Source: Heterodontus francisci
Taxonomy: Eukaryota
Direction of reading: 5' to 3'
Assembly (NCBI RefSeq): GCF_036365525.1
Contig: NC_090373.1
Location: 130,581,962-130,645,961 of the forward strand
Length of the DNA stretch: 64,000 nt
Made by a program: the position numbers and the translations under genes. Below are positions 1-63,500 of the stretch, piece by piece. The notes under the pieces are model-generated. The model ran no database searches. It was not told the DNA's origin and worked only from the letters and a program-made list of their open reading frames with translations. How positions within the stretch are numbered: the stretch's first letter is position 1; the number at the start of each line of letters is the position of its first letter.

Positions 1-139
1 GATCGTTGGATATTGCAGTGCCGTTGCAGCCCTCAATGGCAGCGACCATATCAGAGTTCATTGCCTTGGGAAAGGAAAATCTGGACCAATATTTGTTGTC
101 AGGATGTGGGCAATGCAGATAAGGATGCATTTACTTTTG

Positions 140-500
140 TTTTATTTGTTTGTGGGACGTGGGCGTCACTGGCTAGGCCACCACTTATTGCCCATCCCTA
201 ATTGCCCTTGAACTGAGTGATTTGCTAAGCTATTTGAGAGGGCATTTAACAGTCAACCACATTGCTGTGGGTCTGGAGTCACATGTAGGCCAGACCAGGT
301 AAGGATGGCAGATTTCCTTCCCTAAAGGACATTAGTGAACCAGATGGGTCACCATTAGACTAGCTTTTAATTCCAGATTTATTAATTGAATTCAAATTTC
401 ACCATCTGCTGCAGTGGGATTTTAATCCATGTCCCCAGAGCATTAGCATGGGCTCTGGATTACTAGTCGAGTGACATTACCACTACACCATCGCCTCTCC
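140..500 (-). mobile_element. tRNA-headed SINE (family A) sharing its body and 3' tail with the LINE at 33022-36030
   Basis: Minus strand starts GGAGAGGCGATGGTGTAGTGG (A-box-like) with a degenerate B box. Body is CCCATCTGGTTCACTAATGTCCTTTAGGGAAGGAAATCTGCC and tail is CAAGGGCAATTAGGGATGGGCAATAA plus an A-rich end. Homologous to 11320-11660 and 38978-39391. Confidence 0.85.
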
Positions 501-3339: not shown

Positions 3340-4532
3340 CCACGCACTTCCTTCAAGTAAAAGGTGTCGCTATGGGTACCCGCATGGGTCCTAGTTATGC
3401 CTGTCTTTTTGTGGGATATGTTGAGCATCTCAGGCCCCCTCCCCCAACTCTTTTTCTGGTACATTGATGACTGTATCGATGCCGTTTCCTGCTCCTGCCC
3501 AGAACTGGAAAACTTTATCAACTTTGCTTCCAATTTCCACCCTTCTCTCACCTTTACATGGTCCATCTCTGACACTTCCCTTCCCTTCCTCGACCTCTCT
3601 GTCTCCATCTCTGGGGATAGGTTGTCCATAATAATATCCATTATAAGCCCACCCACTCCAACAGCTACCTCGACTACACTTCTTCACACCCTACCTCTTG
3701 TAAGGACTCCATTCAATTCTCCCAGTTTCTCCGTCTCTGACGCATCTGCTCTGATGATGCTACCTTCCATGACGGTGCTTCTGATATGACCTCATTTTCC
3801 CTCATCCGAGGATTCCCCCCCACTGTTGTTGACAGGGCCCTCAACCGTATCCGGCCCATTTCCCGCACCTCTGCCCTCAACCCTTCCCCTCCCTCCCAGA
3901 ACCGTGACAGGGTTCCCCTTGTCCTCACTTTCCACCCCATCAGCCTCCATATCCAAAGGATCATCCTCCCCCATTTCCACCACCTCCAGCGTGATGCCAC
4001 TACCAAACGCATCTTCCCCTCCCTTCCCCTGTCAGCATTCCGAAGGGATCATTCTCTCCGCGACACCCTGGTCCACTCCTCCATTACCCCCACCACCTCG
4101 TCCCCGTCCCATGGCACCTTCCCCTGCAATCGCAGGAGGTGTAATACCTGCCCATTTACCTCCTCTCTCCTCACTATCCCAGGCCCCAAACACCATTTTC
4201 AGGTGAAGCAGCGATTTACTTGTACTTCTTTCAATGTAGCATACTGTATTCGCTGCTCACAATATGGTCTCCTCGACATTGGGGAGACCAAACACAGACT
4301 GGGTGACCGCTTTGCGGAACACCTCTGCTCAGTCCGCAAGCAGGACCCTGAGCTTCCGGTTGCATGCCATTTCAACACTCCCCCCTGCTCTCATGCTCAC
4401 ATCTCTGTCCTGGGATTGCTGCAGTGTTCCAGTGAACATCAACGCATGCTCGAGGAACAGCATCTCATCTACCGATTAGGCACACTACAGCCTGCCGGAC
4501 TGAACATTGAGTTCAATAATTTCAGAGCATGA
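3340..4532 (+). pseudogene. PLE polyprotein 3' half (RT motifs B-C, thumb, Cys-rich linker, GIY-YIG), frameshifted
   Basis: QVKGVAMGTRMGPSYA, WYIDD, LPFLDL, FPCNRRRCNTC (Zn-finger linker typical of the Neptune clade) and VAYCIRC...LLDIGET...RFAEH. Confidence 0.92.
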
Positions 4533-4879
4533 CAGCCCCCCATTTTACTTTCATTTTTAGTTATTTTTTCTTCTTTTCTTTTTTGCATTTTTTACAATTT
4601 TTTTTTTGCATTTATTTCATTTCATCTTAGTTTGTTCAGTTTGCTTACCCACTGTTTTTTTTCATGTTTGCACTTGCTGCTGTTCAATATTCAGTCCGTT
4701 AACACCTTATCTGTACTAATGCTTTGTCTTTCAACACACCATTAACATATTGTTTGCCTTTGCTCCGTGACCTTTTGGTCAGCTATGTGGCCTTGTCCAA
4801 TCTACACCTTCTCCTTTGTTATCTCTTGTCCCACCCCCACCTCACTTGCTTATAACCTGTGACATTTCTAATATTTGTC

Positions 4880-4916
4880 AGTTCCGAAGAAGGGTCACTG
4901 ACCCGAAACGTTAATT
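4880..4916 (+). ncRNA. Minimal type I hammerhead ribozyme motif in the PLE 3' UTR (U4C core variant)
   Basis: AGTT-CCGAAGA-A-GGGTC(ACT)GACCC-GAAAC-GTT-AATT. More degenerate copies at 585-621 (-) and 3106-3142 (-). Confidence 0.65.
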
Positions 4917-5027
4917 CTGCTTCTCTTTCCACAGATGTTGCCAGACCTGCTGAGTGGTTACAGCATTTCTTGTTTTTGTTTCAGATTTCCAGCATCCGCA
5001 GTATTTTGCTTTTACTACCAATTCCTA

Positions 5028-5430
5028 GTTGCCCTGAGAGAGCGGCAGTGGACTTGCTCCTTGAACTGCTTGTACTGATCATGTTAGGTAGGGAATTCCA
5101 GATAAGTTGAAAGTATGGCCAAGTCAGGATTTTGTGTGATGAGAGGCAAAATTGGAGGTGACAATGTTCCCGTGAACTTGCTGCCTGGTTCCTTCTTTAT
5201 TCTGGAGGTGGCAGCATTGTGAGATGTTGTCAGAATAAACTCAATGAGTTGTTACAGTGCTGCCTGTAGAAAATACAAACTGTAGCCATATTGCACCAGT
5301 GGTGGAAGGAGTTATTATTGAGTCCAGTGGGAAGGGTGCCAATGAAGCAGACTCCCCTGTTGTGAATGGTGTCAGGCTTCAGTATTGTTGTAGCTGCACC
5401 CATCCTGGCAAGTGCTAAGTGTTCCATTAG
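5028..5430 (-). mobile_element. Old decayed 3' fragment of the family-A-tailed LINE (the target of the PLE insertion)
   Basis: Diverged similarity to 49240-49760 and to the reverse complement of 35500-36000. Confidence 0.65.
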
Positions 5431-6184
5431 TCTCTTGTGTATACTAAAATAGTTTTGGCAGTGGCCGGTGACCAGGCCACACCATGGCAGGTCCCAGAGT
5501 CATTAGAGCCACTGAGTCATTACAGCATTGAAAGAGGCCATTCGGCACATCAAGTCCATGATGAAACTGAATGGAGCAGGCTGAGTTCCAGCTTTTCTCT
5601 TCAGGACACCAATTTCCTGAGAGTTACTAAAACAGGCGTGAAGCCCTTTTAGTTTGGGTCAGATGTCTTTCAGAGATCATTGGGCCACAGAACTTTGGTC
5701 CCCAGAATTGGGCTGCCTTGTGCCTGTTTCACATCAGTACAATGAGTGCAATGAGGTATAATTTCTACCCCACTATCCCTTAAAAGTCTATAATGACAAC
5801 AAATCAAAGGGGTTTTCTCAGTATCTAAAGTTTCTGTCCCCAGAATTCTTGAGGCTCAGACCTCAGAGTGCTCAAATGTTTTTTTTTAATTATTGCTTAC
5901 TGCTTCTTTTTCCATTGGGCAGCTGGCACACAACAGGAAATATGGTCAGAGATTGTTCTGACTTGACAAATGCACCAAAACTGATTCCTCTAAATACCTG
6001 AACCTCCTGTAGCTGCAGTGCAGTGCGGATCTCCTCAGCTAAGGAAAGGGAGTTTATGGCAGCCTACTGAGAGTGGAAACTGGAATTATTGCCCTTTGCC
6101 CATTTTCCTGATTAAGAACATAAGAAATAGGAGCAGGAGTCGACCATATGCCCCCTCAAGCCTCCTCCGCCATTCAATCCGATC

Positions 6185-6405
6185 TTTTTTTTTATTAGTT
6201 CTTGGGATGTGAGTATCACTGGCAAGGCCAGCATTTATTACCCATCGCTAATTGCCCTTAAGAAGGTGATCGTGAGCTGCCTTCTTGAACTGCTGCAGTC
6301 CATGTCATATAAGTACACCCACCATTCTGTTAGGGAGTGTGTGCAAGGATTTTGACCCAGCAGCAGTGAAGGAGCGGCGATATAGTTCCAAGTCAGGGTG
6401 GTGTG
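6185..6405 (-). mobile_element. 3' end fragment of the family-A-tailed LINE inserted in the CR1 3' UTR
   Basis: Poly-T followed by GGGATGTGAG...GCATTTATTACCCATCGCTAATTGCCCTT; matches the reverse complement of 35820-36030. Confidence 0.85.
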
Positions 6406-7808
6406 TGATGGCTGATCTTCTACCTCAACTCCACTTTCCTGCCCACTCCCCATATGGTTTGATTTCCTAAGAGACCAAAAATCTGTTTATCTCATCCTTA
6501 AATATATTCAACGATGGAGCATCCACAACCTTCCAGGGTAGAGAATTCCAAAGATTCACAACCCTTTGAGTGAAGAAATTTCTCCTCATCTCAGTCCTAA
6601 ATAATTGCCCCCATATCCTGAGATTGTGCCCCATGCTCTAGATTCCCCAGCCAGGGGAAATAATCTCTCAGTGTCTACCCTATCAAGCCCCCTCAGAATC
6701 TTGTATGTTTCAATGAGACCAACTCTTATTCTTCTAGATGCCAGAGAATATAGGCCCAATTTACTCAACCTCCCATCATAGGACAACCGTCTCATCCCAG
6801 GAACCAATCTGGTGAATCTTTGCTGTACTGCCTCCATTGCAAGTATATCTTTCTTTAAATATGGAGACTGAAACTATATTCCAGGTGTGGTCTCACCAAA
6901 ACCCTGTACAATTGTAGCAAGACTTCCATATTACTGTACTTCAATCCTCTTGCAATATAGGTCAACATGCCATTTGCCTTCCTAATTGCTTGCTGTATTG
7001 TATGATTACCTCCTGTGTTCCTAGTATGAATATATCCAAGTCCCTCTGAACATCGAAATTTAGAAATTTCACACCTTTAAAAAAAATCTGCTGTTCGATT
7101 CTTACTACCGAAGTGAAAAACATCACACATGTGAGGAAACATTATACTCCATCTGCCACCTTGTTGCCCACTCACATTTCTATATTTCTTTGCAGTCTTT
7201 TTGTTTCACCTCACAGCTTACATTCCAACCTAGCTTTGCATCATCGATAAACTTAGGTACATTACTCTCTAACTCTTCGTCTAAGTCATTAATATAGATG
7301 ATAAATAACTGAGGCCCCAGCACTGATCCTTGCCGCACTCCACTGGTTACAGCCTGCCAGCCTCCCGATTTATCCCTTCTCTCTCCTTCCTGTCCATTAA
7401 CTAACCCTCCATTCATGCTAATATATTATCCCCATTCCATGAGCCCTAATCTTGCATATATGTGGCACCTTATCAAATGCCTCTTGGAATTTCAAGTATA
7501 CTACATCTACTAGCTCCCCTGTATCTACCCTACTAGTTACATCCTCAAAAAACTCTAATTAATTTTGTCAGACATGATTTTCTTTTCATAAAACCATGTT
7601 AAATTTGCCTGATAAGGCTATGATTTTCTAAGTGCATTGTTAAGATTTCCTTAATACTAGATTCAAGCATTTTCCTAATGACCAATGTCAGGCTAACTGA
7701 CCTGTTTTCATTCTCCCCGCTTTCTTGAATAATGCTGTTACATTTGCTATCTTCCAATCTGCTGAGACCATACTAGAATCAAGGGAATTTTGGAAAATCA
7801 TAATTAGT

Positions 7809-9032: not shown

Positions 9033-9575
9033 TATGTTGGTGAGACCACACCTAGAGTACTGCGTACAGTTTTGGTCTCCTTATTTAAGAAGGGATATAC
9101 TTGCATTGGCGGAAGTTCAGAGAAGATTCACTAGGTTGATACCTGGGATGAAGGGGTTGTCTTATAAGGAAAGGTTGAACAGGTTGGGCCTATACTCATT
9201 GGTGTTCAGAAGAACGAGAGGTGATCTTATTGAAATGTATTGGTTAGATGCTGAGAGGATGCTTCACCTCATGGGGAAATCTAGAACTAGGGGGCACATT
9301 TTCAAAATAAGGAGCCTCCCATTTAAGATGGAGATGAAAAGGAATTTCTTTTCTCAGAGGGTCATTAGTCTTTGGAATTCTCTTCCCCAGGGAGCAGGGT
9401 CATTGAGTATATTCAAGGCTGAGTTAGACAGATTTTTGATCTACAAGGGGGTAAAGGGTTATGGGGAGCAGGCAGGAATGTGAAGTTAAGGCCACACTCA
9501 TCTTATTAAATGGCGAAGCAGACTCGAGGGGCTGAATGGCCTACCCCTGCCCTTATTTCATATGTTCTTATGTTC
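9033..9575 (+). mobile_element. CR1 LINE 3' fragment
   Basis: LVRPHLEYCVQFWSPY...QRRFTRLIPGM...FFSQRVISLWNSLP; tail ATGTTCTTATGTTC. Confidence 0.92.
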
Positions 9576-11011: not shown

Positions 11012-11319
11012 ATATATCACTACACATATGGTAATCGTTGTGGGGAGACATTGGCAATAATGAACAATTCAGTAGCACCTCTGACTCAGCCATACGTAAT
11101 GCAAAAATCAGATCTTTTACCACCTTGAAAATGCCAACCATACCACTGGAATATACGCTGCCCTGCCTTTGGTTGAGTGCAGCAGCTCCAACGATGACCA
11201 CTGGGAAATTATTACCTCTGTACTCAGCAAGATGTGTTGTACCAATGACCAGAAATTTGGGACTGACCGCACTGCCGATTCTCCTATCTAAACTCCAGTT
11301 GTGTTTGACTACATGCCAT

Positions 11320-11660
11320 GGTAATGCTCTGGGGACATGGCTTCGAATCCCACCACAGCAGATGGTGAAATATGAATGCAATTAATAAATCTGGTATTAT
11401 AAGCTAGTCTAACGGTGACCATGAAACCATTGTCAATTGTTGTAAAAACCCATCTGGTTCACTCATGTCCTTTAGGGAAGGAAATCTGCCGTCCTTACCT
11501 GGTCTGGCCTACATGTGACTCCAGGCACACAGTAATGTGGTTGACTCTTAAAATGCCCTCTGAAATGGCTTAGCAAGCCATTCAGTTCAAGGGCAATTAG
11601 GGATGGGCAATAAATGGTGGCCTAGCTAGCAACGTCCACATCCCACAAACAAATAAAAAA
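11320..11660 (+). mobile_element. SINE family A, 5'-truncated
   Basis: B-box-like GCTTCGAATCCC, same body and tail as 140-500, A-rich end. Confidence 0.88.
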
Positions 11661-12469
11661 AGAGCAGTCTTGTAATTTTATGGCTGATAACTATAGCATC
11701 AAAGCATTAGAAAGAAGGCATATTGTCAAAGGTGATGTCCTTCTAAATTGGCTCTGTGAAAATATTGGTTGCTCATTATGGATGATCAAACAGTGAGAAA
11801 GAAACAGAAAGAGGTTTGTTGACAAAAGTAATAAGGCCTGCAGCCGTGGAATACAATGCACAATCAGTAGACCAGAACATACTGTTAACTTGCGCATTGC
11901 TGCAGGTCAAACAGGTCAGTGACAAAAGAGTTCTGTACATGCTTATTTCATTCTGGGTTAGAGTTATAATTCACCCAATGCACTCTTAAAGCTCTTTGAG
12001 ATAGCTTCCTGGCTTGGGAATCAGATCAGCACCTGAATCTAGAGTTAAGGGGCTGGATTCTCCTCTGTGGAGAATTCAGGCACTGAAATATACTAGCGCA
12101 TCACTACTCACTGCCTTCACTGGGACCACTACTGGCCTCTCATTCCCCGTCTGCTACATATAAAGGCCAGCAGCAGTCTGGGTTCTGGTTTCCCAGGGGA
12201 TATTCCTCCTGTCGACCTGCGTTACCACGAGGGCTGCCTTGGGGAGCAGTAGTAATAATCCTGAGGTTTGATAATTGAGGGATAGGGTCTTGCAGCGTTA
12301 CTCACTCTCTGTCCAGTCTGAATGTAATGATTTATTTGTGTCGGGTGCAGGATGATTTTGTCCCTTTAAAGTCATTCCCACCTCTTGCAGTAGCCTTTCA
12401 CTTGAAGACTCTTGGCAGCAGGTGCAAATGTACTCGACCTGTTGTTTGATTCAATTAAATTGTCATCAA

Positions 12470-13177: not shown

Positions 13178-13588
13178 TTAAGAACATAAGATATAGGAAG
13201 AGGAGTAGACCATTTGGCCCCTTGTGCCTGCTGTACCATTCAATATGATCATGGCTGATCTTCTACCTCAATTCCACTTTCCTGCCCACTCTCCACATTG
13301 CTTGATTTCCCGAGAGACCAAAATCTATCATTCTCAGTCTTGAATAGACTCAATGGAGCATCCACAACCCTCTGAGAAAGATAATTCCAAGCATTCACAA
13401 CTCTGTGAGTAAAGAAATGTCTCCTCATCTCAGTCCTAAATGACTGACCCCTTATCCTGAGACTGTGCCCCCATGTTCTAGATTCCCCAGCCAGGGGAAA
13501 CAACCTCTCAGTGTCTACCCTGTCAAACCCCTTCAGAATCTTGTATGTTTCAATGAGATCAGCTCTCATTCTTCTAAACTCCAGAGAT
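13178..13588 (-). mobile_element. CR1 LINE 3' fragment
   Basis: MRADLIETYKILKGFDRVD...FFTHRVVNAWN; near-copy of 6400-6750. Confidence 0.9.
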
Positions 13589-13950: not shown

Positions 13951-13998
13951 AATGGTTACACCTACACTTCATCAAACCATCATTGAGAATGAGAGCAC

Positions 13999-14167
13999 TA
14001 AAATAAAAGCAAAATACTGCAGATGATGGAAATCTGAAATAAAAACAAGAAATGCTGGAAATACTCAGCAGGTCTGGCAGCATCTGTGGAGAGAGAAGCA
14101 GAGTTAACGTTTCAGGTCACTGACCCTTCTTCAGAACTTCAGAACTTCCAGCATTTCTTGTTTTTAT
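13999..14167. mobile_element. Miniature fold-back PLE 3'-end element with hammerhead motif
   Basis: PLE 3' terminus (-) plus a short inverted arm. Exact 16-bp TSD TTGAGAATGAGAGCAC at 13983-13998 and 14168-14183. Confidence 0.9.
14102..14138 (-). ncRNA. Minimal type I hammerhead ribozyme motif with canonical core
   Basis: Minus strand AGTT-CTGAAGA-A-GGGTC(AGT)GACCT-GAAAC-GTT-AACT: CUGAnGA and GAAA boxes, stem II, palindromic stem III (AACGTT) and stem I AGTT/AACT. Confidence 0.75.
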
Positions 14168-14793: not shown

Positions 14794-16071
14794 TGTTACG
14801 ACCAGGTGAGAAAGGTGTCTAGGGGTCTCTCTCAGCCTTCACCTGGTCTTACCATAACAGTATTTAATTTTAAACACACTGTGTTCTTAGCTCCCCTTTG
14901 GTGAATCCTTGTTCACCGCTTTCCAATTGTAAGGCAAAGAAGCCAGCACAAACATGTTTTCTTAGGTTTAATGAATAAAAGTTGAAATTTATTAAACTTA
15001 AACTCTCATTCGGTTAATGCCTATTGATACATGACACACCCACGCTGGCATGCATACGTGATAAACACATGCAGATAGAGACAGAAAAGAGCAGAAAAAT
15101 TAAAGTGGAAAAGTTTGAGGCAATGTCTGAAGATGGTTTTGGTTACTGTTCTTTGAGCTCGCTGTCGAGTCCTTGATTGGAGGTAGGTCTTGCTTTTCGT
15201 TGGGGCCCTGTATTTTTCTTAAACCTTGTTCGATGTAGGAGACTTTTCCCTCTTGAGGCTCACGTCTTCAGTGGATTTGGAGTCCTGTGAGAAAGCGGCA
15301 CAGTGGCGCAGTGGTTAGCACCGCAGCCTCACAGCTCCAGCGACCCGGGTTCAATTCTTGGTACTGTCTGTGTGGAGTTTGCAACTTCTCCCTGTGTCTG
15401 CGTGGGTTTCCTCCGGGTGCTCCGGTTTCCTCCCATATGCCAAAGACTTGCAGGTTGAGAGGTAAACTGGCCATTATAAATTGCCCCTAGTATAGGTAGG
15501 TGGTAGGGAAATATACAGGGACAGGTGGGGATGTGGTAGGAATATGGAATTAGTGTAGGATTAGTATAAATGTGTGGTTGATGGTCGGCACAGACTTGGT
15601 GGGCCCAAGGGCCTGTTTCAGTGCTGTATCTCTAAACTAAACTAAAAGAGATGGGAGCAGACAGGAGAGGCTGTGGCCAGCCAGGAGAGGTCTTTATAGT
15701 CCAGGAGCAAACAGTCTCTTCCTCTCAAAACTGTCTGTACAATTCAAAAAACTCAGGTTGCCCTGCAGGTTAGTCATGTGACTAGCTGGTTTGACCACGT
15801 CTGTTTGTGGATTCGGCCATCTTAGCAGTCATCCTGGAATATGAGCTTCTTCACTGTCAATGTCTGGTGATCAAAGTCTATTGTGGGTTGACTGTGTCAG
15901 GGAATGGTCCTTTGGCTCCACAAGCACTGTCTGTTAGTATGTAAATTTTTTTTCCAGCCACAGATGATCTATTTAACAGGTCATTTCTTCGCTCCAGCAA
16001 CAGTTTAAAATCAATGTTCATATGACAAAATTAATATGCCTCATTCTTGACAGGTGGGGGTCTGCATGACA
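14794..16071 (-). mobile_element. Solo LTR (Gypsy-like) containing a V-SINE
   Basis: TGTTACG...CATGACA termini; 5-bp TSD CATAG at 14789-14793 and 16072-16076; homologous to 19286-20160 and 31782-32621. Confidence 0.88.
15295..15645 (+). mobile_element. V-SINE (HE1-like) with CR1-derived tail
   Basis: GCGGCACAGTGGCGCAGTGGTTAGC head, GGTTCAATTC B box, V-domain-like GCGTGGGTTTCCTCCGGGTGCTCCGGTTTCCTCCC, tail GGGCCTGTTTCAGTGCTGTATCTCTAAACTAAACTAAA. Confidence 0.9.
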
Positions 16072-25118: not shown

Positions 25119-26100
25119 ATATAAAAACAGAAAGTGCTGGAAATACTCTGACAACATCTGTGGAGACAGAAACAGAGCTAACGGTCGGAATTTTACACCC
25201 CCCCCCCAAATGAGTTGGCTGGTGGTGGTGGGTGGGTGTGTACAATTGAGTGGGAGGCGCGCAGGGTGGGGGGCTGTTCCCGTTCCCCCCCAACCCCCCC
25301 ACCCCTGTTGCAAATTTACACGGGGCGGCGGTGGGGAGAAATGGCTCGCCTGCCCCTGGCTAATCAAGCCGCTTAAGTGCCCAATTAACTGGCACCTAAG
25401 GGGCTCCACCTGCCACTGTGGGTATTTTACCCTTGGCTGGCAGGTGGATGAGGCCTCTAAAAGCCTGCTGGGTGAAAACAGGCGGCCTTCTTGTGGGCTG
25501 GTGGGGGACCTTCCTGATCAGGCACCCTGTGCCCCACGGAGGGCTGCCCCCAAAGCCCCAACCACTCCCAATGCACAACTGTCTCCCCGCTTCCCTAACC
25601 AACTCCCCTTGCCTCACTGGGGCCCAATTAATTGTCCCCAGCGAGGCCCTAAAAACTTACCTTTTTCCAGTACCATCCTTCCTGCTGCTTCCGATGGCTG
25701 GGTGTAATCCCAGCAGTGGCCACTGCTCCCGGTGGTACTGCTGGGACTAAGAGCTGCCGGCCCGCTGATTGGCCGGCATCTCCATTAAGTGGGATGTCCT
25801 GCCTCAATGAGGTGGAAGTCCCGCCCAAGACCAAATAAAGGCATGTGGAGTGAAAAATCCCAGTCTGGCTCCCCCGGCTCAGTGGAGGTGGGCTTGCCAC
25901 CGGCTTTTCGGTTTGTGGACGGGGCCTCCTGCCCAACAAAAAAATTCCAGCCAACGTTTCAAAGTTCTGATGAAAGGTCATTGACCTGACACATTAAATC
26001 TGTTTCTTTCTCCATAGATGCTGCTGAACCTGCTGAGTATTTCCAGCACTTGCTGTTTTCATTTCAGATTTCCAGCATGCGTAGTATTTTGCTTTTATTT
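25119..26100. mobile_element. Older miniature fold-back PLE element split by a MITE, with a degenerate hammerhead at 25963-25999
   Basis: Inverted PLE 3'-end arms at 25119-25182 and 25963-26100; AGTTCTGATGAAAGGTCATTGACCTGACAC; imperfect TSD ATTATTTAATAT / ATTATTTGATAT. Confidence 0.78.
25183..25952. mobile_element. Harbinger-type MITE
   Basis: TIRs GGTCGGAATTTT / AAAATTCCAGCC; exact 3-bp TSD AAC/AAC. Confidence 0.88.
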
Positions 26101-29566: not shown

Positions 29567-29961
29567 TTATTTATTTTATTTATTTATTTAGAGATACAGC
29601 ACTGAAACAGGCCCTTCGGCCCACCGGGTCTGTGCTGACCATCAACCACCCATTTATACTAATCCTACATTAATCCCATATTCCTACCACATCCCCAACT
29701 TCCCTCAATTCCCCTACCACCTACCTATACTAGGGGCAATTTATAATGGCCAATTACCTATCAACCTGCTAGTCTTTGGCTGTGGGAGGAAACCGGAGCA
29801 CCCAGCGAAAACCCACGCGGTCACAGGGAGAACTTGCAAACTCTGCACAGGCAGTACCCAGAATTGAACCCGGGTCGCTGGAGTTGTGAGGCTGCGGTGC
29901 TAACCACTGCGCCACTGTGCTGCCCCAACTGTGCCGCTCCACTGCGCCACTGTGCCGCCCC
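29567..29961 (-). mobile_element. V-SINE (HE1-like) with a duplicated 5' head
   Basis: Reverse complement of 15295-15645; (TAAA)n tail at 29567-29590. Confidence 0.9.
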
Positions 29962-32621: not shown

Positions 32622-33021
32622 GTTATCATCAGCAAATTTTGAAATTCTACTCGGTACTCCAAAATCCAAGTCATCTATATATAGCAAAAAAAGCAATGGT
32701 CCCAGCACTGACCGATGGGGAACACCACTGTCTAGCAGCCTCCAGTCTGAGAAAAAACTACTTACCATGACTCGGAGTTTTCTGTCCTTAAGCCAATTTT
32801 TTAAATCCAATTTGGCACTGACCCTCCTATTCCATGAGCCTCAATTTTGTTAACCAGCCTTTTCTGTGATACTTTCTCAAATGCTTTGTTAAAATCTATA
32901 TAATCAACATCCACTGCATTCTCTTCATCAACCTTCCCTGTTACTTCATCAAAAAATTCAATTAGATTAGTCAAGCACGATCTGCCTTTTACAAATCCGT
33001 GCTGGCTATCCTTAATTAACA

Positions 33022-36000
33022 ATGAATGAATATGGAATTAAAAAAGCTAGTCTAATGATGGCCATAAAACCATTGTTGATTGTTGTAAAAACCCATCTGG
33101 TTCACTAATGTCCTTTAGGAAAGGAAATCTGCCATGCTTACCTGGTCTGGCCTACATGTGATTCCAGACCCACAGCAATGTGGTTGACTCTTAAATGACC
33201 GAGCAAGCCACTCAGTTGTATTTAACCGCTACGAAGTCAATAAGGAATGAAACCAGACAGATCATCCGGCATCCACCTAGGCACTGGAAATGACAACGGC
33301 AAACCTAGTGCTGTTGACCCTCAAAAGTCCTCCTGACCAAGTCTGGGGGCTTGTGCCAAAATTGGGAGAGCTGTCACACAGACTAGTCAAGTAACATCCT
33401 CACATAGTCATACTCACATGCCTTATAGACAATGTCCCAGACACTGCCATCACAATCCTCGGGTATGTCCTGTCCCACCGGTAGAATAGACCCAGCAGAG
33501 GTGGTGGCACAGTGGTATACAGTCAGGAGGGAGTTGCCCTGGGGGTCCTCAACATCGATGCCAGAGCCAATGAAGTCTCATGGCATCAGGTGAAACATGG
33601 GCAAGGAAACATAGGAGCAGGAGTAGGCCATTCAGCCGATCGTACCTGCCCGCCATTTAATATGATCTTGGCTGATCATCCACTTCAATGCCTTTTTCCC
33701 ACACAATTCTCATACCCCCTTATGTCATTTGTATTTAGAAATCTGTCAACCTCTGCTTTAAACATACTCAATGACTGAGCTTCCACAGCCCTCTGGGGTG
33801 GAGAACCTCCTGCTGATTACCACCCATCACCATCCCCTTCAGCTGATGAAACGGTACTCCTCCATGTTGACCAGCACTTGGAGGAAGCACTGAGAGTGGC
33901 AAGGGTGCAGAATGTACTCTGGGTGGGGGACATCAACGTCCATCACCAAGAGTGGCTCGGTAGCACCACTACTGACCATTCTGGCCGAGTCCTAATGGAG
34001 ATAGCTGCTGGACTGGGTATGCGGCAGGTGGTGAAGGAACAAACAAGAGGGAAAAATATACTTGACTTCATCCTCACCAATCTGCCTACCGCAGATGCAT
34101 CTGTTCATGACAGTGTGGTAGGAGTGATCACCGCACAGTCCTCGCCAAGACAAAGTCTCGTCTTCACATTGAGGATACCCTCTATCGTGTTGTGTGGCAC
34201 TACCACCATGCAAAATGGGATCTAGCAATGCAAAACTCGGCATCCATGAGGCCATCAGCAACAGCAGAATTGTACTCAACCACAATCGGTAACCTCAGGG
34301 CCACATCCTCAACGATGGAGGAGCCCAGCACATCAGTGCAAAAGATAAGACTGAAGCATTTGCAACAATCTTCTGCCAGGAGTGCCGAGTTGATGATCCA
34401 TTTCGGCCTTCTCCTGAAGTTCCCAGCATCACAGATGCATGTCTTCAGCCAATCCAATTCATTCTGCGTGATATCAAGAAATGACTGAAGGCACTGGATA
34501 CTGCAAAGGCTATGGGCCTTGACAACATTGCAGCAATAATACTGAAGACTTGTGCTCCGCAACTTGCCATGCCCCTAGCCGAGCTGTTCCAGTACAGCTA
34601 CAACACTAGCACCTACCCGACAATGTGACAAATTGCCCAGGTATGTCCTATACACAAAAAGCAGGACAAGTCCAACCCGCCCATCAGTCTACTCTCAATC
34701 ATCAGTAATGTGATGGAAGGTGTCATCGACAGTACTATCAAGCGGCACTTGCTTAGCAATAACCTGCTCACTGATGCTCAGTTTGGGTTCTGCCAGGGTC
34801 ATTCAGCACCTGACCTCATTACAGCCTTGGATAAAACATGGACAAAAGAGCTGAACTCAAGAGGTGAGGTGAGAGTGACTGCCCTTGACATCCAGGCAGC
34901 ATTTGACCGAGTATGGCATCAAGGAGCCTTAGCAAAATTGGAGTCAATGGGAAACAGGGGGAAAGCTCTCCGCTGGTTGGAGTCATACCTAACGCAAAGG
35001 AAGATGGTTGCGGTTGTTGGAGGTCAATCATCTCAGTTCCAGGACATCACTGCAGGAGTTCCTCAGGGTAGTGTCCTAGGCCCAACCATCTTCAGCTGCT
35101 TCATCAATGATCTTCCTTCAGTCATAAGGTCAGAAGTGGGGATGTTTGCTGATGATTGCGCAATGTTCAGCACCATTGCGACTCCTCAGATACAGTCCGT
35201 GTAGAAATACAACAAGACTTGGGCAATATTCAGGCTTGGGCTGATAGTGGCAAGTAACATTCGTGCCACACAAGTGCCAGGCCATGACAATCCCCAACAA
35301 GAGAGAATCTAACCATCACCCTTTGATGTTCAATGGTATTATGATTGCTGAATCCCCCACTATCAATATCCTGGGGGTTACCATTGACCAGAAACTGAAC
35401 TGGAGTAGTCATATAAATACCATGGCTACAAGAGCAGGTCAGAGGCTAGGAATCCTGCGGTGATTAACTCACCTCCTGACTCCCAAAGTCTGTCCACCAA
35501 CTACAAGGCACAAGTCAGGAGTGTGATGGAATACTCTCCACTTGCTTGGATTGGTGCAGCTCCAACAACACTCAAGAAGCTCAACACCATCCAGGACAAA
35601 GCAGCCTGCTTGATTGGCACCCCATTCAAAAATATTCACTCCCTCCACCACGGACACACAGTGGCAACAATGTGTACCCCATCTGCAAGATGCACTGCAG
35701 CAATGCACCAAGGCTCTTTAGACAGCACCTTCCAAACTCACGACCTGTACCACCTAGAAGAACAAGGGCAGCAGATGTATGGGAACACTACCACCTGCAA
35801 GTTCCCCTCCAAGCCACATACCATACTGACTTGGAACTATATTGCCGGTCCTACACTGTCGCTGGGTCAAAATCCTGGAACTCCCTTCCTAACAGCACTG
35901 TTGGTGTACCTACCCTACATGGACTACAGAGGTTCAAGAAGGCAGCTCACCTCTCAAGGGCAATTAGAGATGGGCAATAAATGCTGGCCCAGTCAGCGAC

Positions 36001-36030
36001 GCCCACATCCCATGGATGAATAAAAAAAAA
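33022..36030 (+). mobile_element. CR1-group LINE (APE + RT, no ORF1 seen) whose 5' region is the SINE-A body; decayed
   Basis: APE motifs WGLVPKLGELSHRL, RPSRGGGTVVY, WVGDINVHH and NILDFILTN. RT motifs QFGFCQGHS, ALDIQAAFDRVWH, AGVPQGSVLGPTIFSCFINDL and MFADD. Poly-A end at 36030. Small CR1 tail inserted at ~33607-33805. Confidence 0.9.
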
Positions 36031-37733
36031 CCTCAAAACTGTCACAGTGCCTGTGGATTTTTTCCCCCTGATTATTGTTTCTAAAACCTTATCCATCACT
36101 GATGTTAAACTACTTGGCCTGTATTTGCTAGGACTATCCTTACACCCTTTCTTGAATAAGGGTGTTACAATTGCCACTCTCCAATCCTCTGGTACCTCCC
36201 CCCATATCTAAGGAAGTTTGGAAATTTATGGCAAACCCTTCCACTATCTCCACCCCCACTTCCTTTTGCAACCTGGGATGCAAGCCATCCGGACCAGGTT
36301 ACTTATCTACCGTAACCTACCCTTTCCATTACCTCCTCCCTCTCCGTTTTTACCCTATCCATTGACTCTACTCTCTCCACTTCTACTGATAGTTTGTCAG
36401 CATTCTCTTCCTTAGCAAATACCTGTACAAAGTACTCATTAAGTATTCTAACCTTGCCCTGTGTTTCAAGGGTCATATTACCCTCTTTGTCCCTAATAGG
36501 TCCCACTCCACTTCTGACTACTCGCTTACTATTTACATGCTGGTAGAAGATTTTTGGGTTCCCTTTTATGTTGACTGCCATTCTATTCTCATATTCTCTC
36601 TTTGTCAGTCTTATTTTCCTCTTCACCTCCCCTCTCAGATTATTGTATTTGGCCTGGTTCTCACTTGAAGAATTCACCTTTCATGCATCATACAACCTCT
36701 TTTTGTTTCATCATAATCTCTATCTCCCTCGTCATCCAAGGAGCGCTGATTTTGGCTCCCCTGCCTTTTGTCCTTGTTGGAATGTTCCAAGCCTGTACCT
36801 GAAGCATCTCTTTCTTAAAGATAACCCATTGTTCCATTACAGATTTTCCTATCAATATTTGGTTTCATTTTATCCTGGTTAGATCCCTTCTCATTGCATT
36901 GAAATTAGCCCTCTTCCTATCTAGCCATTCTAGCATATACCATTCCTTGCTTTTCTGCATTACGAGTCTAAACCTTATGATACGATGATTATTCTTAACC
37001 AAGTGCTCTCTAAAAGACACTTGGTCCACTTGGCCCATCTCATTTCCCATCAGCAGAGACAGCAATGCCTCCTTTCTAGTTGAACCGAAAACATACTGAT
37101 CAAAGAAATTTTCCTGAACAGAATCTAAAGATTTCTCCCCCCTCCTTTCCCTTTACTGTAAAATTATCACATTTGATATTTGGGGAATTAAAGTCCCCCA
37201 ATATCACCACTCCATAGTTCTCGCACTTCTCAGTGATTTCCTTGCAGATTTGCTCCTCTATCTCTCTCTCTCACTATTTGGAGGCTTATAAAATATCCCG
37301 AGTAAAGTGATCATACCCTTTTTCCTTCTCAACTCTAACCACATGGATTCTATCCTTGCCCCCTCAAGAACATCCTCCCTTTTTAACACTACAATGTCTT
37401 CCCTAATCAGTACCGCCACCCTACCTCCCTTTTTTCCTTGTCTAGCTTTTAAGTATTAAGTGCCCAGTCCTCACAATTTTTAAGGTATATTTCTGTTATT
37501 GCCACTACATCATATTCCCCTACTACTATTTGTGCTTGCAGCTCACCAACTTTATTCACTACAATTTGTGCATTTACATACATGTATTGTAAGCCTGTCT
37601 TTGCATTCCTCGTAGCCCTTCTCAGTCTGCTCCTATCTAATATGGAACTATTGCCTTCTCTGGTACACTCTCACATTATGCACCTTCTTCCTCTTCTCTA
37701 TTTCTATATGCTGGTGCCCATCCCCCTGTCAAT

Positions 37734-38977: not shown

Positions 38978-39391
38978 ATTTTTTTATTCTTTCATGGGAT
39001 GTGGGCATTGCTGGCAAGGCCAGCATTTGCTGCCCTTCCCTAATTGCCCTTGAGAAGGCAACTAAGTGGCTTGCTAGGTCATTTTAGAGGGCAGTTAAGA
39101 GTCAACCACATTGCTGTGGGTTTGGAGACACATGTAGGCCAGACCAGGTAAGGATGGCAGATTTCCTTCCCAAAAGGACACGAGTGAACCAGATGGGTTT
39201 TTATGACAATCGATGACAGTTTCATGGCACCATTACTGAGACTAGCTTTCAATTCCAGATTTTATTTTCTTAATTAATTGAATTTAAATTCCATCAGCTG
39301 CCATGGTGCGATTTGAACCCACGTCCCAAGGGTATTAGCCTGGGTTTCTAGATTACTAGCCAAGTGATATCACCACTACACCACCGTCTCC
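38978..39391 (-). mobile_element. SINE family A, full length, with a variant body/tail junction
   Basis: Minus strand GGAGACGGTGGTGTAGTGG (A box), GGGTTCAAATCGC (B box), body and LINE tail; junction CACTTAGTTG|CCTTCTCAAGGG. Confidence 0.88.
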
Positions 39392-41719
39392 AGGATTTCT
39401 CCTGGAAGTCTAGGCATCGGTCAGATGTGGTCTGCAGCTTGAATGATTAATAAAAAAAATTCAGTTCCCTTAGTTATTAGAAATCATCATTGACAGATAA
39501 ATGAGCCAGAGTATCCTGGAATAGGCAATGCCAAAGGTTCCTGGCAGGGGAACCCCAGCACTTACTGCTGATATGTTGATTGCATGCAGGTTTGGGGACC
39601 AGATCTTGATAGCTACTTTTCAGTTCATTGAAACATGTAAATGAAGCTTATCCTCACCTCCACATGAATGGTGGAAACGTTGAGCAGGATGAATTAAGGG
39701 TAGTGAAAATGTTTAAACCTAAAAGATATTGTGAAAAAGGGTTAGAATGAGATGAATATCTATAAATATAGAAAGGTCTTGCCTCTGGCATACATTCATC
39801 ATACTCCAGATGTCACTTTTTATTTAAAAAAAGAAAGCCTAAACTGAGTTCTTTTTACCTGCAGCTTGAAATCTACAAGCAATTTACTGACCTTGAAATC
39901 ACTCATCATATTTACAAGCAGCTATGATTATTCACATTGCTACAGGGAGCATTGGAGAAATAGCCTAAAAGGGACAGGCCATGTCTGTAGCAGAACATCC
40001 CGAGCTAGTCCTGGCCCCAGAGAGTACCACAGGAGATCTGTTAGCTATCGAAAAAGAGTAAAATCAACTGAGAATAAATAATCCTAATATTGTGATATTG
40101 AAACTAACAAACAGGATTAGTTAATTCACACCTAAAACACATTGGCCCTGCATTTCCACAGAGTTCTCCAAATGTCCCACCATAGCGTCAGTAATAGATT
40201 GGCAAAAACACTGAACTATTGGCTTAATACTGTTTATACCATTTACCCAGTTTTTGTTGGGGCTCTGTCAGCCTGCCACTAGAAAATCCACATGGACATT
40301 CTAAAGTGAATTTTTAGATTTTTAAAATAAAATTGTGTTTTAAGTGTTACAGTTAAGTTTACTTCAATAAAGCTATTTTGATGCTTGAGTGGCTTTATTA
40401 CGGTAATTCTACATTTCCCTCTCCCTTCCTGGTTGGTGTCCATTTTTCTTAGACCTATCTGTGAAGAACCTTAAGAATATTCTTTATGGTAGAAGTGCTA
40501 TACAAATGCAAGCTGTTATATTCAGTGTCACAGGGCTGAATCAAAGAGAATCAGTTGGCCTGGAAGACAGGAGTTTCCCTTAACCTGCAAGCAGTCTGAC
40601 GGTTAACACATTCATTGTTCAAGCTAGAAGTAGGCATAACATAGGTGTGGGCTAACATTCAGGACTTATGTTTTAAGTGGCACTATCTGATGCATAAAAG
40701 GCTAATTCAGATGAAGCACATAATGAAATATGTTAGAAAGGTTCAAAAATCTACTTTGGTTTTCTACTTGGAGCAATAAACATTAGCATCTTCCAAAAGA
40801 TGGGGGCAAAAATAAACAGAAACTTTCATGTTAAAATGGGCGTTAGAGAAAATTAAGCTGTCAGAACCACTGCTATGATAAAAATTTATGTGGGAGATAT
40901 ATTGAGGATTGGGACACTTGGGACAATACTGAACCAGTGCTTACAACATTTCTGCAGACAATTCTGACAAGACATAGAAATAGAGGAGTGTATGAACAAA
41001 TCCTAACAAACTAAAGAGATAAGAAAGAAAAAATTAAACAGATAACATACAGTTCTGCAGTTGTTCTCTGACAATCTCCTTTTTCAGTCTTTTGGTTTAG
41101 CTGATGATTAGGGATGAGCAATAAATGCTGGCCTCGCCAATGACGTCTACATCCCATGAATGATTACAAAAAAGTCTTCAACAGGAGGCAGCGATAATAA
41201 AACAACTGCATACTCAGCACGTCTTACAAATTCAATTGAAAATTCTGTCATTAGAATTTTTTGAGCAACAGTTAAAATATTTTTTCTGTATAAACATTGG
41301 TCCATTAGGCCCGGACCATTGTATTTACCAATGATAATGATGATGCTGCCGAATCATAGCAATCAATTTCTATTAATTAATCTACAGCAGACCCAGAAAT
41401 GATATGAGGAAAGCCCCAGGGGTGGAGAGTTTTGGGAACCACAGGTCCAAAATCACCTTTTTCCCAATGAAGCATGGAACACTTGCCACATGCCATGCCT
41501 CAAATTACAAATATACTGTATCCCAAAATGCCATTTCCTGCACAAAATCTATCCAATTAGCATTTGAATGAATCAATACTAACTACTTCCACTTTTTTTG
41601 GGGAGCCTGTTCCATAGACTAACCACTCACTCAATGAATTGTTGTACCATAGAATTTTTTTTCGATTTGCCACCCTTCAAGCTTGCGCCTTGTCCCCTGG
41701 TTCTACTCTTCTGGGCAAC

Positions 41720-45597: not shown

Positions 45598-45932
45598 AGG
45601 GCGGCACAGTGGCGCAGTGGTTAGCACTGCAGCCTCACAGCTCCAGGGACCCGGGTTGGATTCTGGGTACTGCCTGTGTGGAGTTTGCAAGTTCTCCCTG
45701 TGACCGTGTGGGTTTTCGCCGGGTGCTCTGGTTTCCTCCCACAGCCAAAGACTTGCAGGTTGATAGGTGAATTGGCCATTGTAAATTGCCCCGAGTGTAG
45801 GTAGGAGAATGGTGGGGATGTGGTAGGGAATATGGGATTAATGTAAAATGACTATAAATGGGTGGTTGTTGGTCAGCACAGACTTGGTAGGCCGAAGGGC
45901 CTGTTTCAGTGCTGTATCTCTCTCTCTCTCTA
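45598..45932 (+). mobile_element. V-SINE (HE1-like)
   Basis: Colinear with 15295-15645. Confidence 0.9.
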
Positions 45933-46439: not shown

Positions 46440-47594
46440 CTAGCCTGTCTATGTCCTTTTGAAATCTATGACAATCATTCTCACAGTTCACAATACTTCC
46501 AAGTTTTGTATCATCTGCAAATTTTGAAATTGTGCCCTGCACACAAGTGTAAGTACACTATTATGCTATTGTTTCTTTGACTGAATCTGAACTTTTGATT
46601 TCTGAACAGCACGGATCATTTTACAAGCAGCCTCTGGCAAAACTTGTCACATCACCTGCCACCACACATACCCTGGAATACGCAGAGGTGCTGGCCAAAT
46701 TTTGAATTGATTGAAACTAGACTAATTTAGAAAGAATTGAGCCAATTTGCATTTGTGACTGACTATGTTAGAGCTTTATTCTGGATTTAAACACGTAACC
46801 CAGTGCAGACTCAACACACTGTAGCAATATCGATTCAGAAATGTATCTCTTTTCCCCATGGGGCCACACTAGGGTGGCGTAGCACTCTTCCTCTGTTCTG
46901 TGATGCTTGCATCTAAGCAACAGGAGATTTTGCTGCATGCACCAGCTACTTGTTTATATTTTATGAAGGTGAATGGTGGCCGCAGTTCAAACTAGGATCA
47001 AATGCAAATTACAAAAGAATACAATTGATTAAAAGGGGATCTAGGCCCTATTTGGCAGGAAAGGCAACAATAGGATTGGGATACACAAGAACACAAGAAA
47101 TAGGAGCAGGAGTAGACCATATGGCCCATTGAGCCTGCTCCGCCATTCAATTTGATCATGGTTGATCCAACTCCACTTTCCCGCCCGCACAATGATTCTT
47201 GGTACAGTTGCAGCTGTACTGGCAGCTCTGGGAGTAGGCTGTGCTGAATTTATCAGTGCAAGAAATCTTTTGCTTTTTGTTGCTTGGTGTAAAAGTCATG
47301 TTGCTGTCTACATTATCATCTATTATAATAATATGCAGTTTCTGTCTCCACATTTTTCTGATTGGTTGGTGGGTTGAAAGGGTGGGCAGAGCCAGCACTC
47401 AGCACACAGTCGGAGGTTTATTGGACCCATTTTCCACTGCAAGGAGAGTGAGTTGTACAAATGAAAACTTCCCTTGGCATTTAGATTTGGCTCCAAACGA
47501 GAAATCAGGTCTGCAGTGGATATGTTCAAGGTTTTCGCACGTACGGTGAAAGATGAGTTTGGTACACACTCGTGAGACTATAATATAAAATTAA

Positions 47595-49102: not shown

Positions 49103-49237
49103 CAAAAACAAAAAACTGCAGATGATGGAAATCCGAAACAAAAACAGAAAATGCTGGAAATACTCAGCAGATCAGGCAGCATCTGTGGAAAGAAAAGCAG
49201 AGTTAATGTTTCAGGTTGATGACCGTTAATCAGAACT
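49103..49237 (-). mobile_element. PLE 3'-end fragment with a degenerate hammerhead
   Basis: Diverged copy of 13999-14138. Confidence 0.8.
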
Positions 49238-49239
49238 CA

Positions 49240-50232
49240 TTTTTTTTATTTGTTCACGGGATGTGGGCATCGCTGGCTAGGCCAGCATTTATTACCCATC
49301 CCTAATTGCCCTTGAGAAGGTGGTGATGAGCTGCTTTCCTGAACCACTGCAGTCCATGCAGGGTAGGTACACCCACAGTGCTGTTAGGAAGGAAGTTCCA
49401 GGATTTTGACCCAGCGACAGTGAAGGAACGGCGATATAGTTCCAAGTCAGGATGGTGTGTGACTTGGTGGTGAACTTGCAGGTGGTGGTGTTCCCATGTA
49501 TTTGCTGCCCTCGTCCTTCTATGTGGTAGAGGTCGCGGGTTTGCAAGGTGCTGTCTAAGGAGCCTTGGTGCATTGTTTCAGTGCATCTTGTAGATGGTAC
49601 ACATTACTGCCACTGTGCATCGGTGGTGGAGGGGGTGATTATTTGTAAATGGGGTGCCAATCAAGTGGGCTGCTTTGTCCTGGATGTTGTTGAGCTTCTT
49701 GAGTATTGTTGGAGCTGCAACCCATCCAGGCAAGTGGAGAGTATTCCATTACACCCCTGACTTGTGCTTTGTAGATGGTGGACAAGTTTTGGGGAGTCAG
49801 GAGGTGAGTTACTCGCTGCAGAATTCCTAGCCTCTGACCTGCTCTTATAGCCAGGGTATTTATATGGCTGGTCCAGTTCAGTTTCTGGTCATTGGACATG
49901 CCTGGTCAATTTTCCACATTGCCGGGTAGATGCCAGTGTTATAGCTGTACTGGAACAGCTTGGTTAGGGGCACGGCAAGTTCTGGAGGACAGGCCTTCAG
50001 TATTATTGGCGAAATGTTGTCAGGGCCCATGGCCTTTGCAGTATCCAGTGCCTTCTGTCATTTTTTGATTTCACGCAGAGTGAATCAAATTGGCTGATGG
50101 ACTGGCATCTGTGATGCTGGGGACTTCAGGAGGAGGCCGAAATTAATCATCCACTTGGCACTTCTGGCTGAAGATAGTTGCAAATGCTTCAGCCTTATCT
50201 TTTGCACTGATGTGCTGGGCTCCCCCATCATT
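49240..50232 (-). mobile_element. Family-A-tailed LINE fragment with an internal deletion
   Basis: Reverse complement of 35380-36030 joined at ~49895 to 34315-34640. Confidence 0.88.
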
Positions 50233-50329
50233 ATAGATGTGACAGATTAATGGAAATCCTTTGCAATGGCACTGACTCAATTTTATATTTATTTTATGGA
50301 TGCCCTTCAAAATGCAGTTTGTGGTGCAG

Positions 50330-61854: not shown

Positions 61855-63500
61855 CCAGATTGTTACCCACAGACGAATGAGTAAAATTGGAAGTGGGAAA
61901 AGAGCTTTAATTTATAAGTTGGTTTCCCTGATCACTCCTCACAAATCCGAAAAGGACAAAGGGTGTTAGAAGTCCAGGCAGTCCTGGAAGAGAAAGGAAA
62001 GCAGGAGACACAGGGCGCCCTCCTTCAACCAAAAAGGAAGGTTCTGTGAGCAAGAGTGAGACCTGGAGACCTGTGCGCTTCCATTATAATAAAGCAGGGC
62101 ATTCAAAAGCTGACTGCTGGAAACTAAAGGGGAAACCAGTAGGGTTAATCAGGGCACACCCGCTCAGTGCAGACGGGATCCTGATGGAAAACACAGAACA
62201 AGCTGTGGCTTTAACTGCAGTAAGAGTGCAACCCAGGAAGCTAACTACGAGCAGTGAAGGAAAAGTTAATAGGATTCCTGAAGGTTATCAGGGTTTTGTA
62301 TTTGAAGGGAAAGTAACCCCATATCCCTCGAGTGGGACAAGTAAGCCTATAGTGATTCTCAGGGACACAGGGGCCACTAGATCCCTTTTACTGGGAAAAG
62401 GCCTGACCTTTCCCGCAGAGAGTGCAGTGAACACCAAAATGGTGGTGAATGGTATTGGAGGGCAGTATGCCTGTACTGGTATACTGGGTGCACCTGTATT
62501 GCGACCTAGTTTCAGGACCAGGACTAGGGATTGTCCCTAGTTTGCCTGTGGATGGGATTGACCTGCTCCTAGGTAATGATCTGGCAGGGGTGAGATGGTA
62601 ACCCCTCCCCAAGTAGTGAAAGAAAGACTACAGGAGGTCAGAGAGACAGGGCCTTGGCAGGGGATTGTGTAGTGGATCAGGCCACGATCAAACCAGCTCC
62701 CCCAGAGGAGGCACTGCAAGCAAATGACCATGAGGTTTGCCTGTCAGAGATTTTCTTTGGAAAGTTAGGAGACCCAGGGAATGAATTAAATGGATTTTCC
62801 CTAGGTGGGGCTCAGCGAGCTGAACCAGTATTAGGAGAGTTAGCACAGGCTGCCCAGTCTGAAAGTGAAGCAGAGGGAGTCCCTGATTGCTACTATTTAA
62901 AGAATGAGATACCGATGAGGAAATGGAGTTCTCCTCACAGATCTGAGAGCAAGTAGCAGACATTAGTTCACCAGTTAGTGGTGCTGCAGAGGTACCGGAG
63001 AGAAATACTAAGAAGGGCCTATGAGACTACAGTGGCTGTACATGCTGGTATATAAAAGACCAAAGCCCGCATAAGACAGCAGTTTGACTGGCCAAAACTC
63101 CACAAAGATGTGGTGGAGTATTGCAGGAACTGCCACACGTGCCAGGTAGAGGGGAAACCCCAACCTACAGTGAAACATGCAACCATAAGTCCTGGAATAA
63201 AACCAAGAAATGCTGGAACCACTCAGCAGGTCTGGCAGCATCTGTGGAAAGAGAAGCAGAGCTAACGTTTCGAGTCAGTGACCCTTCTTCGGAACTGACC
63301 CGAAATGTTAACTCTGCTTCTCTTTCCACAGATGCTGCCAGACCTGCTGAGTGGTTCCAGCATTTCTTGTTTTTATTTCAGATTTCCAGCATCCGCAGTA
63401 TTTTGCTTTTATTTTAGCCCATAAGTCCTGGACAGGTGTTAGGAGAACCCTCCAGCAGAGGGCTGGTGAACTGTAAGGGACCCCCACTGAGAACAAAAGG
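61855..63500 (+). mobile_element. Gmr1-like Ty3/Gypsy internal region (gag knuckle, protease, integrase N-terminus), decayed
   Basis: FHYNKAGHSKADCWKL (degenerate CCHC), ILRDTGATRSLL and DLLLGNDL (protease), then HAGI*KTKARIRQQFDWPKLHKDVVEYCRNCHTCQ (integrase H2C2) with no RT in between. Confidence 0.8.
63197..63418. mobile_element. Miniature fold-back PLE 3'-end element with hammerhead motif
   Basis: Near-perfect inverted arms of the PLE 3' terminus; exact 14-bp TSD CCATAAGTCCTGGA at 63183-63196 and 63419-63432. Confidence 0.92.

Follow-up and report, generated by a model that had tools for sequence, protein, structure and literature searches.

A Zenon LINE of Heterodontus francisci that shares its 5' region with a SINE bearing a tRNA-like head

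In LINE biology it is established that the APE endonuclease makes the nick and that the reverse transcriptase (RT) primes on the 3' tail. A locus in a 64,000-nucleotide stretch of the Heterodontus francisci genome (the window) raises the question of how a LINE comes to share its 5' region with a SINE as well, and of which of the two elements gave that region to the other. The first-pass annotation of this DNA had taken it as a rule that SINEs share only the tail with their partner LINE; RTE and Vingi provide cases of SINEs that also share a LINE 5' part (PMC5786205), and the rule is therefore too strong.

The LINE copy and the SINEs of the window

We found that 33020-36030 is a decayed copy, truncated at its 5' end, of the Zenon LINE of elasmobranchs, an abundant element in these animals, in the order SINE body, 120-nt linker, APE, RT and SINE tail, with ORF1 absent. 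A single ORF with APE and RT and no ORF1 is a Zenon feature, as is the poly-A 3' end, here the A run at 36021-36030 (A runs also end other copies in the window); among elements of the CR1 group, this ending is described as unique to Zenon (PMC13343379). The parts of the LINE, the older element that received it and the related copies in the window are as follows.

138..497, minus strand: SINE copy with type 1 junction; its tRNA-like head has the A box at 490 and the B box at 427
6185..6407, minus strand: short 3' fragment of the LINE family, from sequence match within the window
11316..11662, plus strand: SINE copy cut at its 5' end, with type 1 junction; a B box but no A box
32626..33019, minus strand: older CR1, recipient of the insertion, downstream half of RT; flank of the LINE
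33020..33217, plus strand: SINE-shared body, the LINE 5' UTR, by BLASTN and alignment; same segment in published Zenon consensuses
33218..33337, plus strand: LINE-only linker; covered in all 4 sequencing runs laid on the element, also in Zenon consensuses
33338..33610, plus strand: APE endonuclease, first part; 2 stops, 80% to whale-shark P0158, match to P0161
33611..33805, minus strand: later insertion in the APE, a 195-nt 3' fragment of the window's CR1-type family; matches 9500-9556, 13193-13282 and 47100-47167
33806..34114, plus strand: APE endonuclease, second part; Pfam PF14529, E 6e-9
34302..35177, plus strand: reverse transcriptase; 2 stops, Pfam PF00078, E 4e-25
35178..35953, plus strand: remainder of the ORF, frameshifted; ends just before or inside the tail
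35954..36030, plus strand: 3' tail common to LINE and SINE; ends in an A run
36031..36600, minus strand: older CR1, recipient of the insertion, upstream half of RT; flank of the LINE
38978..39391, minus strand: SINE copy with type 2 junction, longer by 7 nt; at relaxed threshold its head forms a cloverleaf that has a long variable arm
49240..50241, minus strand: second copy of the LINE, 5'-truncated; 86-87% identical

Between the body of the LINE (33020-33217) and the three SINE copies, identical bases number 151/165, 172/195 and 171/194 of those aligned (BLASTN E values of 2e-45 to 5e-59), the same level at which the SINE bodies resemble one another (163/177, 162/177 and 181/206), and the initial identification of the LINE 5' region with the SINE body is thus upheld. 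By overall identity, the LINE body is no closer to one SINE type than to the other. The LINE tail is identical to each of the three SINE tails at 52/63 positions, confirming that LINE and SINE end alike, and both parts of the SINE, 5' and 3', therefore match the partner LINE. The SINE itself is short, non-coding and dispersed, with its LINE-shared tail and three copies in 64 kb. MetaSINEs have been described (PMC4824008), and we considered the Meta-domain as the identity of the body and dropped it as not supported; in a comparison aimed at the known conserved SINE bodies (Meta, CORE, V and Deu), five short body and tail motifs had no exact match in the supplementary data (one file aside) of two papers.

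The APE reading of the LINE begins at about 33320-33338, 100-120 nt past the body, in agreement with the earlier estimate of about 110 bp, and ORF1 has no space there. The linker translates as a decayed Arg-rich arm running into the APE, with a 1-nt loss near 33333-33340, where the sequencing runs have insertion rows (33333/33340). Decay extends to the body, in which about 12 nt are missing near 33192; its 5' cut falls about 25 nt downstream of where the tRNA-like head would end, and this copy thus lacks the head, as had been cautioned at the outset. The fragment at 33611-33805 is private to this copy, three of the four runs having the joint 33607>33804, with a loose end at 33610. Pfam Exo_endo_phos_2 and RVT_1 matches are above cut-off, and the nearest close proteins are those of the whale shark, at 80% identity. 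No relative emerged when viral contigs were scanned with a profile, a long-protein search gave no match above 45% identity, and the 2, 0, 1 and 1 loci picked up by DNA pattern in viral, metagenome and prokaryote collections are without exception chance matches of 20-23 nt. Two metatranscriptome runs (X19 and X20) contained 7-11% of the LINE's words.

Body and LINE arrived at this locus together, as one insertion event. Once 33020-36030 is removed, two RT motifs of the host CR1 lie 119-121 nt apart, the spacing being 117 nt in 7/7 bird CR1 proteins, from which it follows that body and LINE are a single insertion. Target-site duplications were sought for the LINE and SINE copies in the window, and none was found beyond one 5-mer. 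The locus has three layers of nesting (CR1, then Zenon, then the CR1 fragment at 33611-33805), which orders the activity of these elements. Other Zenon 3' ends in the window adjoin a Penelope-like end (49104-49240) and a CR1-type end (6112-6185), representing further insertions into or beside repeats, and 41107-41173 is a solitary 67-nt tail fragment of the Zenon/SINE family.

The RT of the LINE does not group with vertebrate CR1 of the HER1 type and forms a separate branch nearer to invertebrate-type elements. Identity to three CR1 RT pieces of the window is 32-33% (47% over one 47-residue piece), and in a quick tree of 47 rows, made up of every third long match plus named sequences, among which there is no named Zenon RT, it falls outside the group of bird and window CR1 elements (support 98) and near a crab protein (91). 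This position is in line with the placement of Zenon in PMC13343379.

The join between body and endonuclease across elasmobranchs

The join between body and linker is not confined to this locus. A frame spanning it, used as a protein query, returned seven proteins; in whale-shark P0161, a predicted gene known from its protein only, the body translation is followed by the letters of the LINE-type junction and then by the start of the APE, and P0159 and P0160 have the SINE-type join. Contigs of four runs from four organisms cover the entire element, linker included, at depths that are not copy numbers. One of the runs is only presumed to be RNA, and we therefore claim no expression; the contigs reveal neither a start nor a strand. 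No contig among the 32 pieces listed from these runs crosses the body/linker join, and the run contigs therefore do not prove contiguity.

Published consensuses carry the same join. Zenon LINEs have been reported from five elasmobranchs, the coelacanth and hagfish, none of them having an ORF1 and each ending in poly-A (PMC13343379), and exact motif matches of our LINE are present in the supplement to that paper. We compared by eye the first 400 letters of each consensus in its Table S2. In 7/7 elasmobranch consensuses, from five species (CarCar_Zenon-1, RhiTyp_Zenon-1, ScyCan_Zenon-1, SquAca_Zenon-1, -2 and -3 and HypSab_Zenon-1, by their name codes white shark, whale shark, catshark, spiny dogfish three times and stingray), the tRNA-like head of the SINE and then its body lead through the same join into the linker. 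Over these letters body, junction, linker and APE start are collinear and agree with our copy, and the likeness extends to the absent ORF1, the A-run end, the length of about 3.3 kb and the grouping with crustacean elements; there is no structural difference, 33020-36030 being a truncated copy. The three consensuses from hagfish and coelacanth have another start. The single-ORF LINE with a tRNA-like head at the 5' end of the family, which the first-pass annotation had suggested, is thus borne out by published consensuses. That annotation had named two findings as contrary to its reading, a join unique to the locus and full-length copies with a normal 5' UTR and ORF1; since the join recurs and the consensuses are headed and lack ORF1, neither applies.

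Lengths of genomic insertions are compatible with end-to-end copies in three species, whose three longest insertions average close to the consensus length (3299/3288, 3299/3293 and 3322/3314; Table S3 of PMC13343379). For the other four consensuses the values are 3220/3283, 2870/2886, 3240/3096 and 4347/3244, and as in the last case such insertion lengths can be inflated. Among the data examined there was no single genomic copy with both head and ORF.

Two explanations would confine the head or the join to less than the whole family. A template switch from LINE RNA to SINE RNA could have produced a one-off chimera at this locus, in keeping with the single copy of this kind within the window; we give this practically no chance, as it is already refuted by the same join in P0161 and in seven consensuses from five species. 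More serious is a version of Kojima's bipartite model, in which the LINE begins at or in the body and the head, belonging to the SINE only, has been grafted onto the consensuses from SINE copies. The consensuses were extended automatically, then inspected by hand and curated (PMC13343379), extension is open to grafting, and abundant SINEs could therefore have donated the head; moreover, the LINE copy at 33020-36030 is headless, and the bipartite model has many precedents among RTE and Vingi. However, grafting would be needed in 7/7 consensuses, and the longest insertions equal the consensus length, head included, in three species. An A at about 33059 in the body is common to the LINE copy and four consensuses and is not found in the three window SINEs, and the heads of white shark, whale shark and catshark depart from those of the window SINEs just before the B box (a weak point, these being other species). 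We thus consider grafting very unlikely, and the arrangement head, body, linker, ORF and tail very probably genuine and common to this known LINE family as a whole.

The absence of ORF1 is ordinary for Zenon; what is unusual is the tRNA-like head on the autonomous element itself. It is present in published sequences, yet apparently unremarked. The main text of PMC13343379 speaks neither of tRNA or a promoter nor of polymerase III or an internal deletion, the word SINE occurs there only in a reference, and its preprint mentions neither tRNA nor promoter. A tRNA-headed Zenon or its SINE was not described in the full-text literature that we searched, with subscription papers mostly, and repeat databases, beyond its scope, and the SINE may already have a name. 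For the whale shark, CR1-Zenon-like repeats have been reported (10.1101/443036).

Origin of the SINE and direction of descent

Because the LINE consensuses start with the head and body of the SINE, the SINE is likely the LINE minus its coding middle. The loss would have taken place at the body/linker boundary, by a deletion or template jump, probably more than once or with subsequent exchange of 5' ends, and the LINE protein would copy the resulting SINE in trans through the common 3' tail. SINE-type joints, from 33192-33197 to 35953-35975, occur in 4/4 runs from four organisms, with 12, 17, 14 and 7 contigs at the joint 33194>35954.

The two SINE junctions that had been distinguished at first reading both exist as described, but they are nested: type 1 (the SINEs near 140 and 11320) is type 2 (the SINE at 38978) minus 7 nt, type 2 keeping an additional base of the linker and an additional six from the 3' end of the LINE, and at the type 1 joint at most 1 nt fits either side. 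At five diagnostic sites, the SINE at 38978 corresponds to the dogfish-type LINE 5' end and the SINEs near 140 and 11320 to the white-shark type (PMC13343379 consensuses), the copy near 140 lacking one of the five; the LINE at 33020-36030 clearly covers two of these sites and is of the white-shark type there, and the catshark and whale-shark consensuses are a mixture of both sets. This pattern fits either two births of the SINE from different LINE variants or one birth with a 7-nt loss and a later 5' exchange. The proposal that the LINE has spawned SINEs repeatedly is thus only partly supported, since the two SINE types do match two LINE 5' variants but their junctions are nested.

Alternatively, one could envision descent in the reverse direction, a template switch having moved head and body from an older tRNA SINE onto a Zenon LINE, with later exchanges keeping the two alike. 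The 5' ends of Zenons from hagfish, coelacanth and butterflies are different, so the head has been acquired, possibly from an older SINE, with its direction unrooted. Such a donation would also suit the star-like distances between LINE and SINE bodies, and chimeras of other RNAs with LINEs do arise by template switching, those described with L1 being one-off (PMC13174262). Against it, the SINE at 38978 retains the extra linker base and the six LINE 3' bases, as a deletion product would, and within the window no SINE pairs this body with another tail. We consider the SINE a rather unlikely donor; a donation of this kind would be compatible with either of the promoters discussed below.

Derivation of the SINE from the LINE has a parallel in butterflies, where a Zenon of about 3.3 kb yields a short element of 5' and 3' parts, Persaeus, reportedly several times (PMC6740152). 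Both butterfly elements differ from ours in being without tRNA similarity or Pol III boxes, according to the same source, and the Persaeus deletion is flanked by a 5-bp direct repeat, whereas the shark type 1 joint has at most the 1 nt given above. Our SINE behaves like a SIDE, an element defined, as in Persaeus, by having no small-RNA head; the shark element has one. Closer in composition are the bipartite SINEs derived from RTE and Vingi (Bov-tA, CoeSINE4, WALLSI2 and SINE2_Gav), which join a tRNA head to 5' and 3' LINE parts (PMC5786205), but in these the head is on the short element alone, whereas the Zenon head is on the autonomous element. In the available parts of that paper, RTE and Vingi were the only groups found to supply LINE 5' parts to SINEs, and RTE-1_DAn (RTE clade), mentioned there as a LINE containing tRNA-like sequence, is the nearest precedent that we found. 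The HE1/HER1, SacSINE1/L2 and CmiSINE/L2 pairs of cartilaginous fish likewise include tRNA-headed SINEs with a LINE tail (PMC5499810, PMC3747384); unlike ours, they are described as having CR1 (HER1) or L2 partners and sharing the tail only. Bivalve SINEs use Zenon tails (PMC11481361, PMC10294476).

Transcription and translation of the LINE RNA

For transcription of the 3.3-kb LINE RNA from end to end we favour Pol III, with the tRNA-like head as its likely internal promoter. With search patterns that we take to represent the A and B boxes, both complete window SINE heads have a pair 63-64 nt apart, among 23 loose pairs in the window. With ARAGORN, 1/3 heads gave a cloverleaf, and this only once the score threshold was relaxed (a level reached by 2 of 500 shuffles and giving 31 calls over the window), and Rfam gave no tRNA match to the window SINE heads at E<=10. 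An A box occurs together with a B box of canonical sequence in the white-shark, whale-shark and catshark consensuses (PMC13343379). Because the evidence from the window heads is modest, we term the SINE head tRNA-like, with A- and B-box-like motifs.

If the LINE is transcribed by Pol III, runs of T should be avoided on its sense strand. There are no runs of four or more T (T4+) in 2806 nt of this strand, with 5.2 expected from a base shuffle (P 0.006), 3.1 when codons are shuffled over 2001 coding nt (P 0.019) and 2.5, no significant difference, from a dinucleotide shuffle (P 0.068); runs of A, C and G are at expected levels. The antisense strand has 15 T4+ runs and CR1 sense strands have 35 in 5276 nt, and among 34 T-matched blocks of 2806 nt the LINE block is the lowest (one run, from the inserted fragment; the next has 4, the mean is 10.9). 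The second LINE copy also has none in 992 nt, being of the same family and thus not independent; the old fragment at 5119-5429 (311 nt) has two, and the T-poor non-coding strand of a Penelope-like repeat likewise has none in 1.35 kb. We regard this depletion as suggestive of Pol III use, the chances of which, judged from sequence, seem about even for the headed LINE.

As a rule, LINEs are transcribed by Pol II and SINEs by Pol III, the latter being too weakly processive for long elements (PMC10886601). With the same anatomy, Pol II could accordingly make the LINE RNA, starting in the body or at promoters of the flanking host DNA; the head would then be carried along or act as a helper, with its Pol III promoter at work in the SINE only. 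Besides the general rule and the shortness of Pol III products, this would spare the LINE an uncapped RNA, and it has the example of the butterfly Zenon, which functions with a 5' end lacking tRNA similarity (PMC6740152); the signal from T runs is also modest. Against it stand the retention of the A and B boxes at the extreme 5' end in five species and the contrast of no T4+ runs on the sense strand with 15 on the antisense, and we judge transcription by Pol II unlikely. On balance, we lean slightly towards a headed, single-ORF Zenon that uses its head as a Pol III promoter and has given rise to the SINE by loss of its coding middle.

Translation of such an RNA would be cap-independent or start at a non-AUG codon. 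An ATG at 33195, open in this LINE copy, was rejected as the start of the family, as it meets a stop two codons on in 6/7 consensuses and is deleted in the seventh (PMC13343379). Within 33195-33260 of the window, the family has an ATG in strong context at the end of the body, followed by one codon and a stop, and a conserved linker ATG (33249) lies in a frame different from that of the APE; the length of the linker, by eye in the consensuses, alters the frame between species. As no conserved in-frame AUG is visible and the linker varies in length, we infer that translation begins without a cap or at a codon other than AUG. When body, linker, tail and heads were folded, none reached a significant z-score (best -1.68), and we thus claim no ribozyme or IRES structure. 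In its fullest form, which we put forward tentatively and hold to be doubtful as a whole, the LINE would since the common ancestor of sharks and rays have been transcribed entirely by Pol III from a captured tRNA head, its 3.3 kb purged of terminators, and translated without a cap or in-frame AUG through the conserved body, shedding SINEs at one hotspot.

A head-bearing autonomous LINE in five shark and ray species, with head, body and tail of the SINE all contained in its partner, brings into question the working rule that the head of a SINE is added to the short element alone, and it extends the origin of SINE bodies in LINE 5' UTRs from RTE and Vingi to Zenon. Whether Pol III can produce a long, coding retrotransposon RNA becomes testable, as does the role of a highly conserved SINE body, here directly 5' of an ORF. 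In shark repeat annotation, a full-length Zenon will be recorded as two elements, a SINE and a LINE.

The window also holds a second, unrelated SINE family (15295-15646, 29579-29925 and 45599-45921), presumably HE1, with A/B-box pairs 44-52 nt apart; BLASTN gave no match between this tRNA-headed family and the Zenon-partner SINE. Two Penelope-like elements, at 517-1865 and 3000-5014, are 93% identical and have a GIY-YIG-type reading frame, and repeated ends of this type also lie at 13996-14138, 25963-26100, 49104-49237 and 63192-63417.
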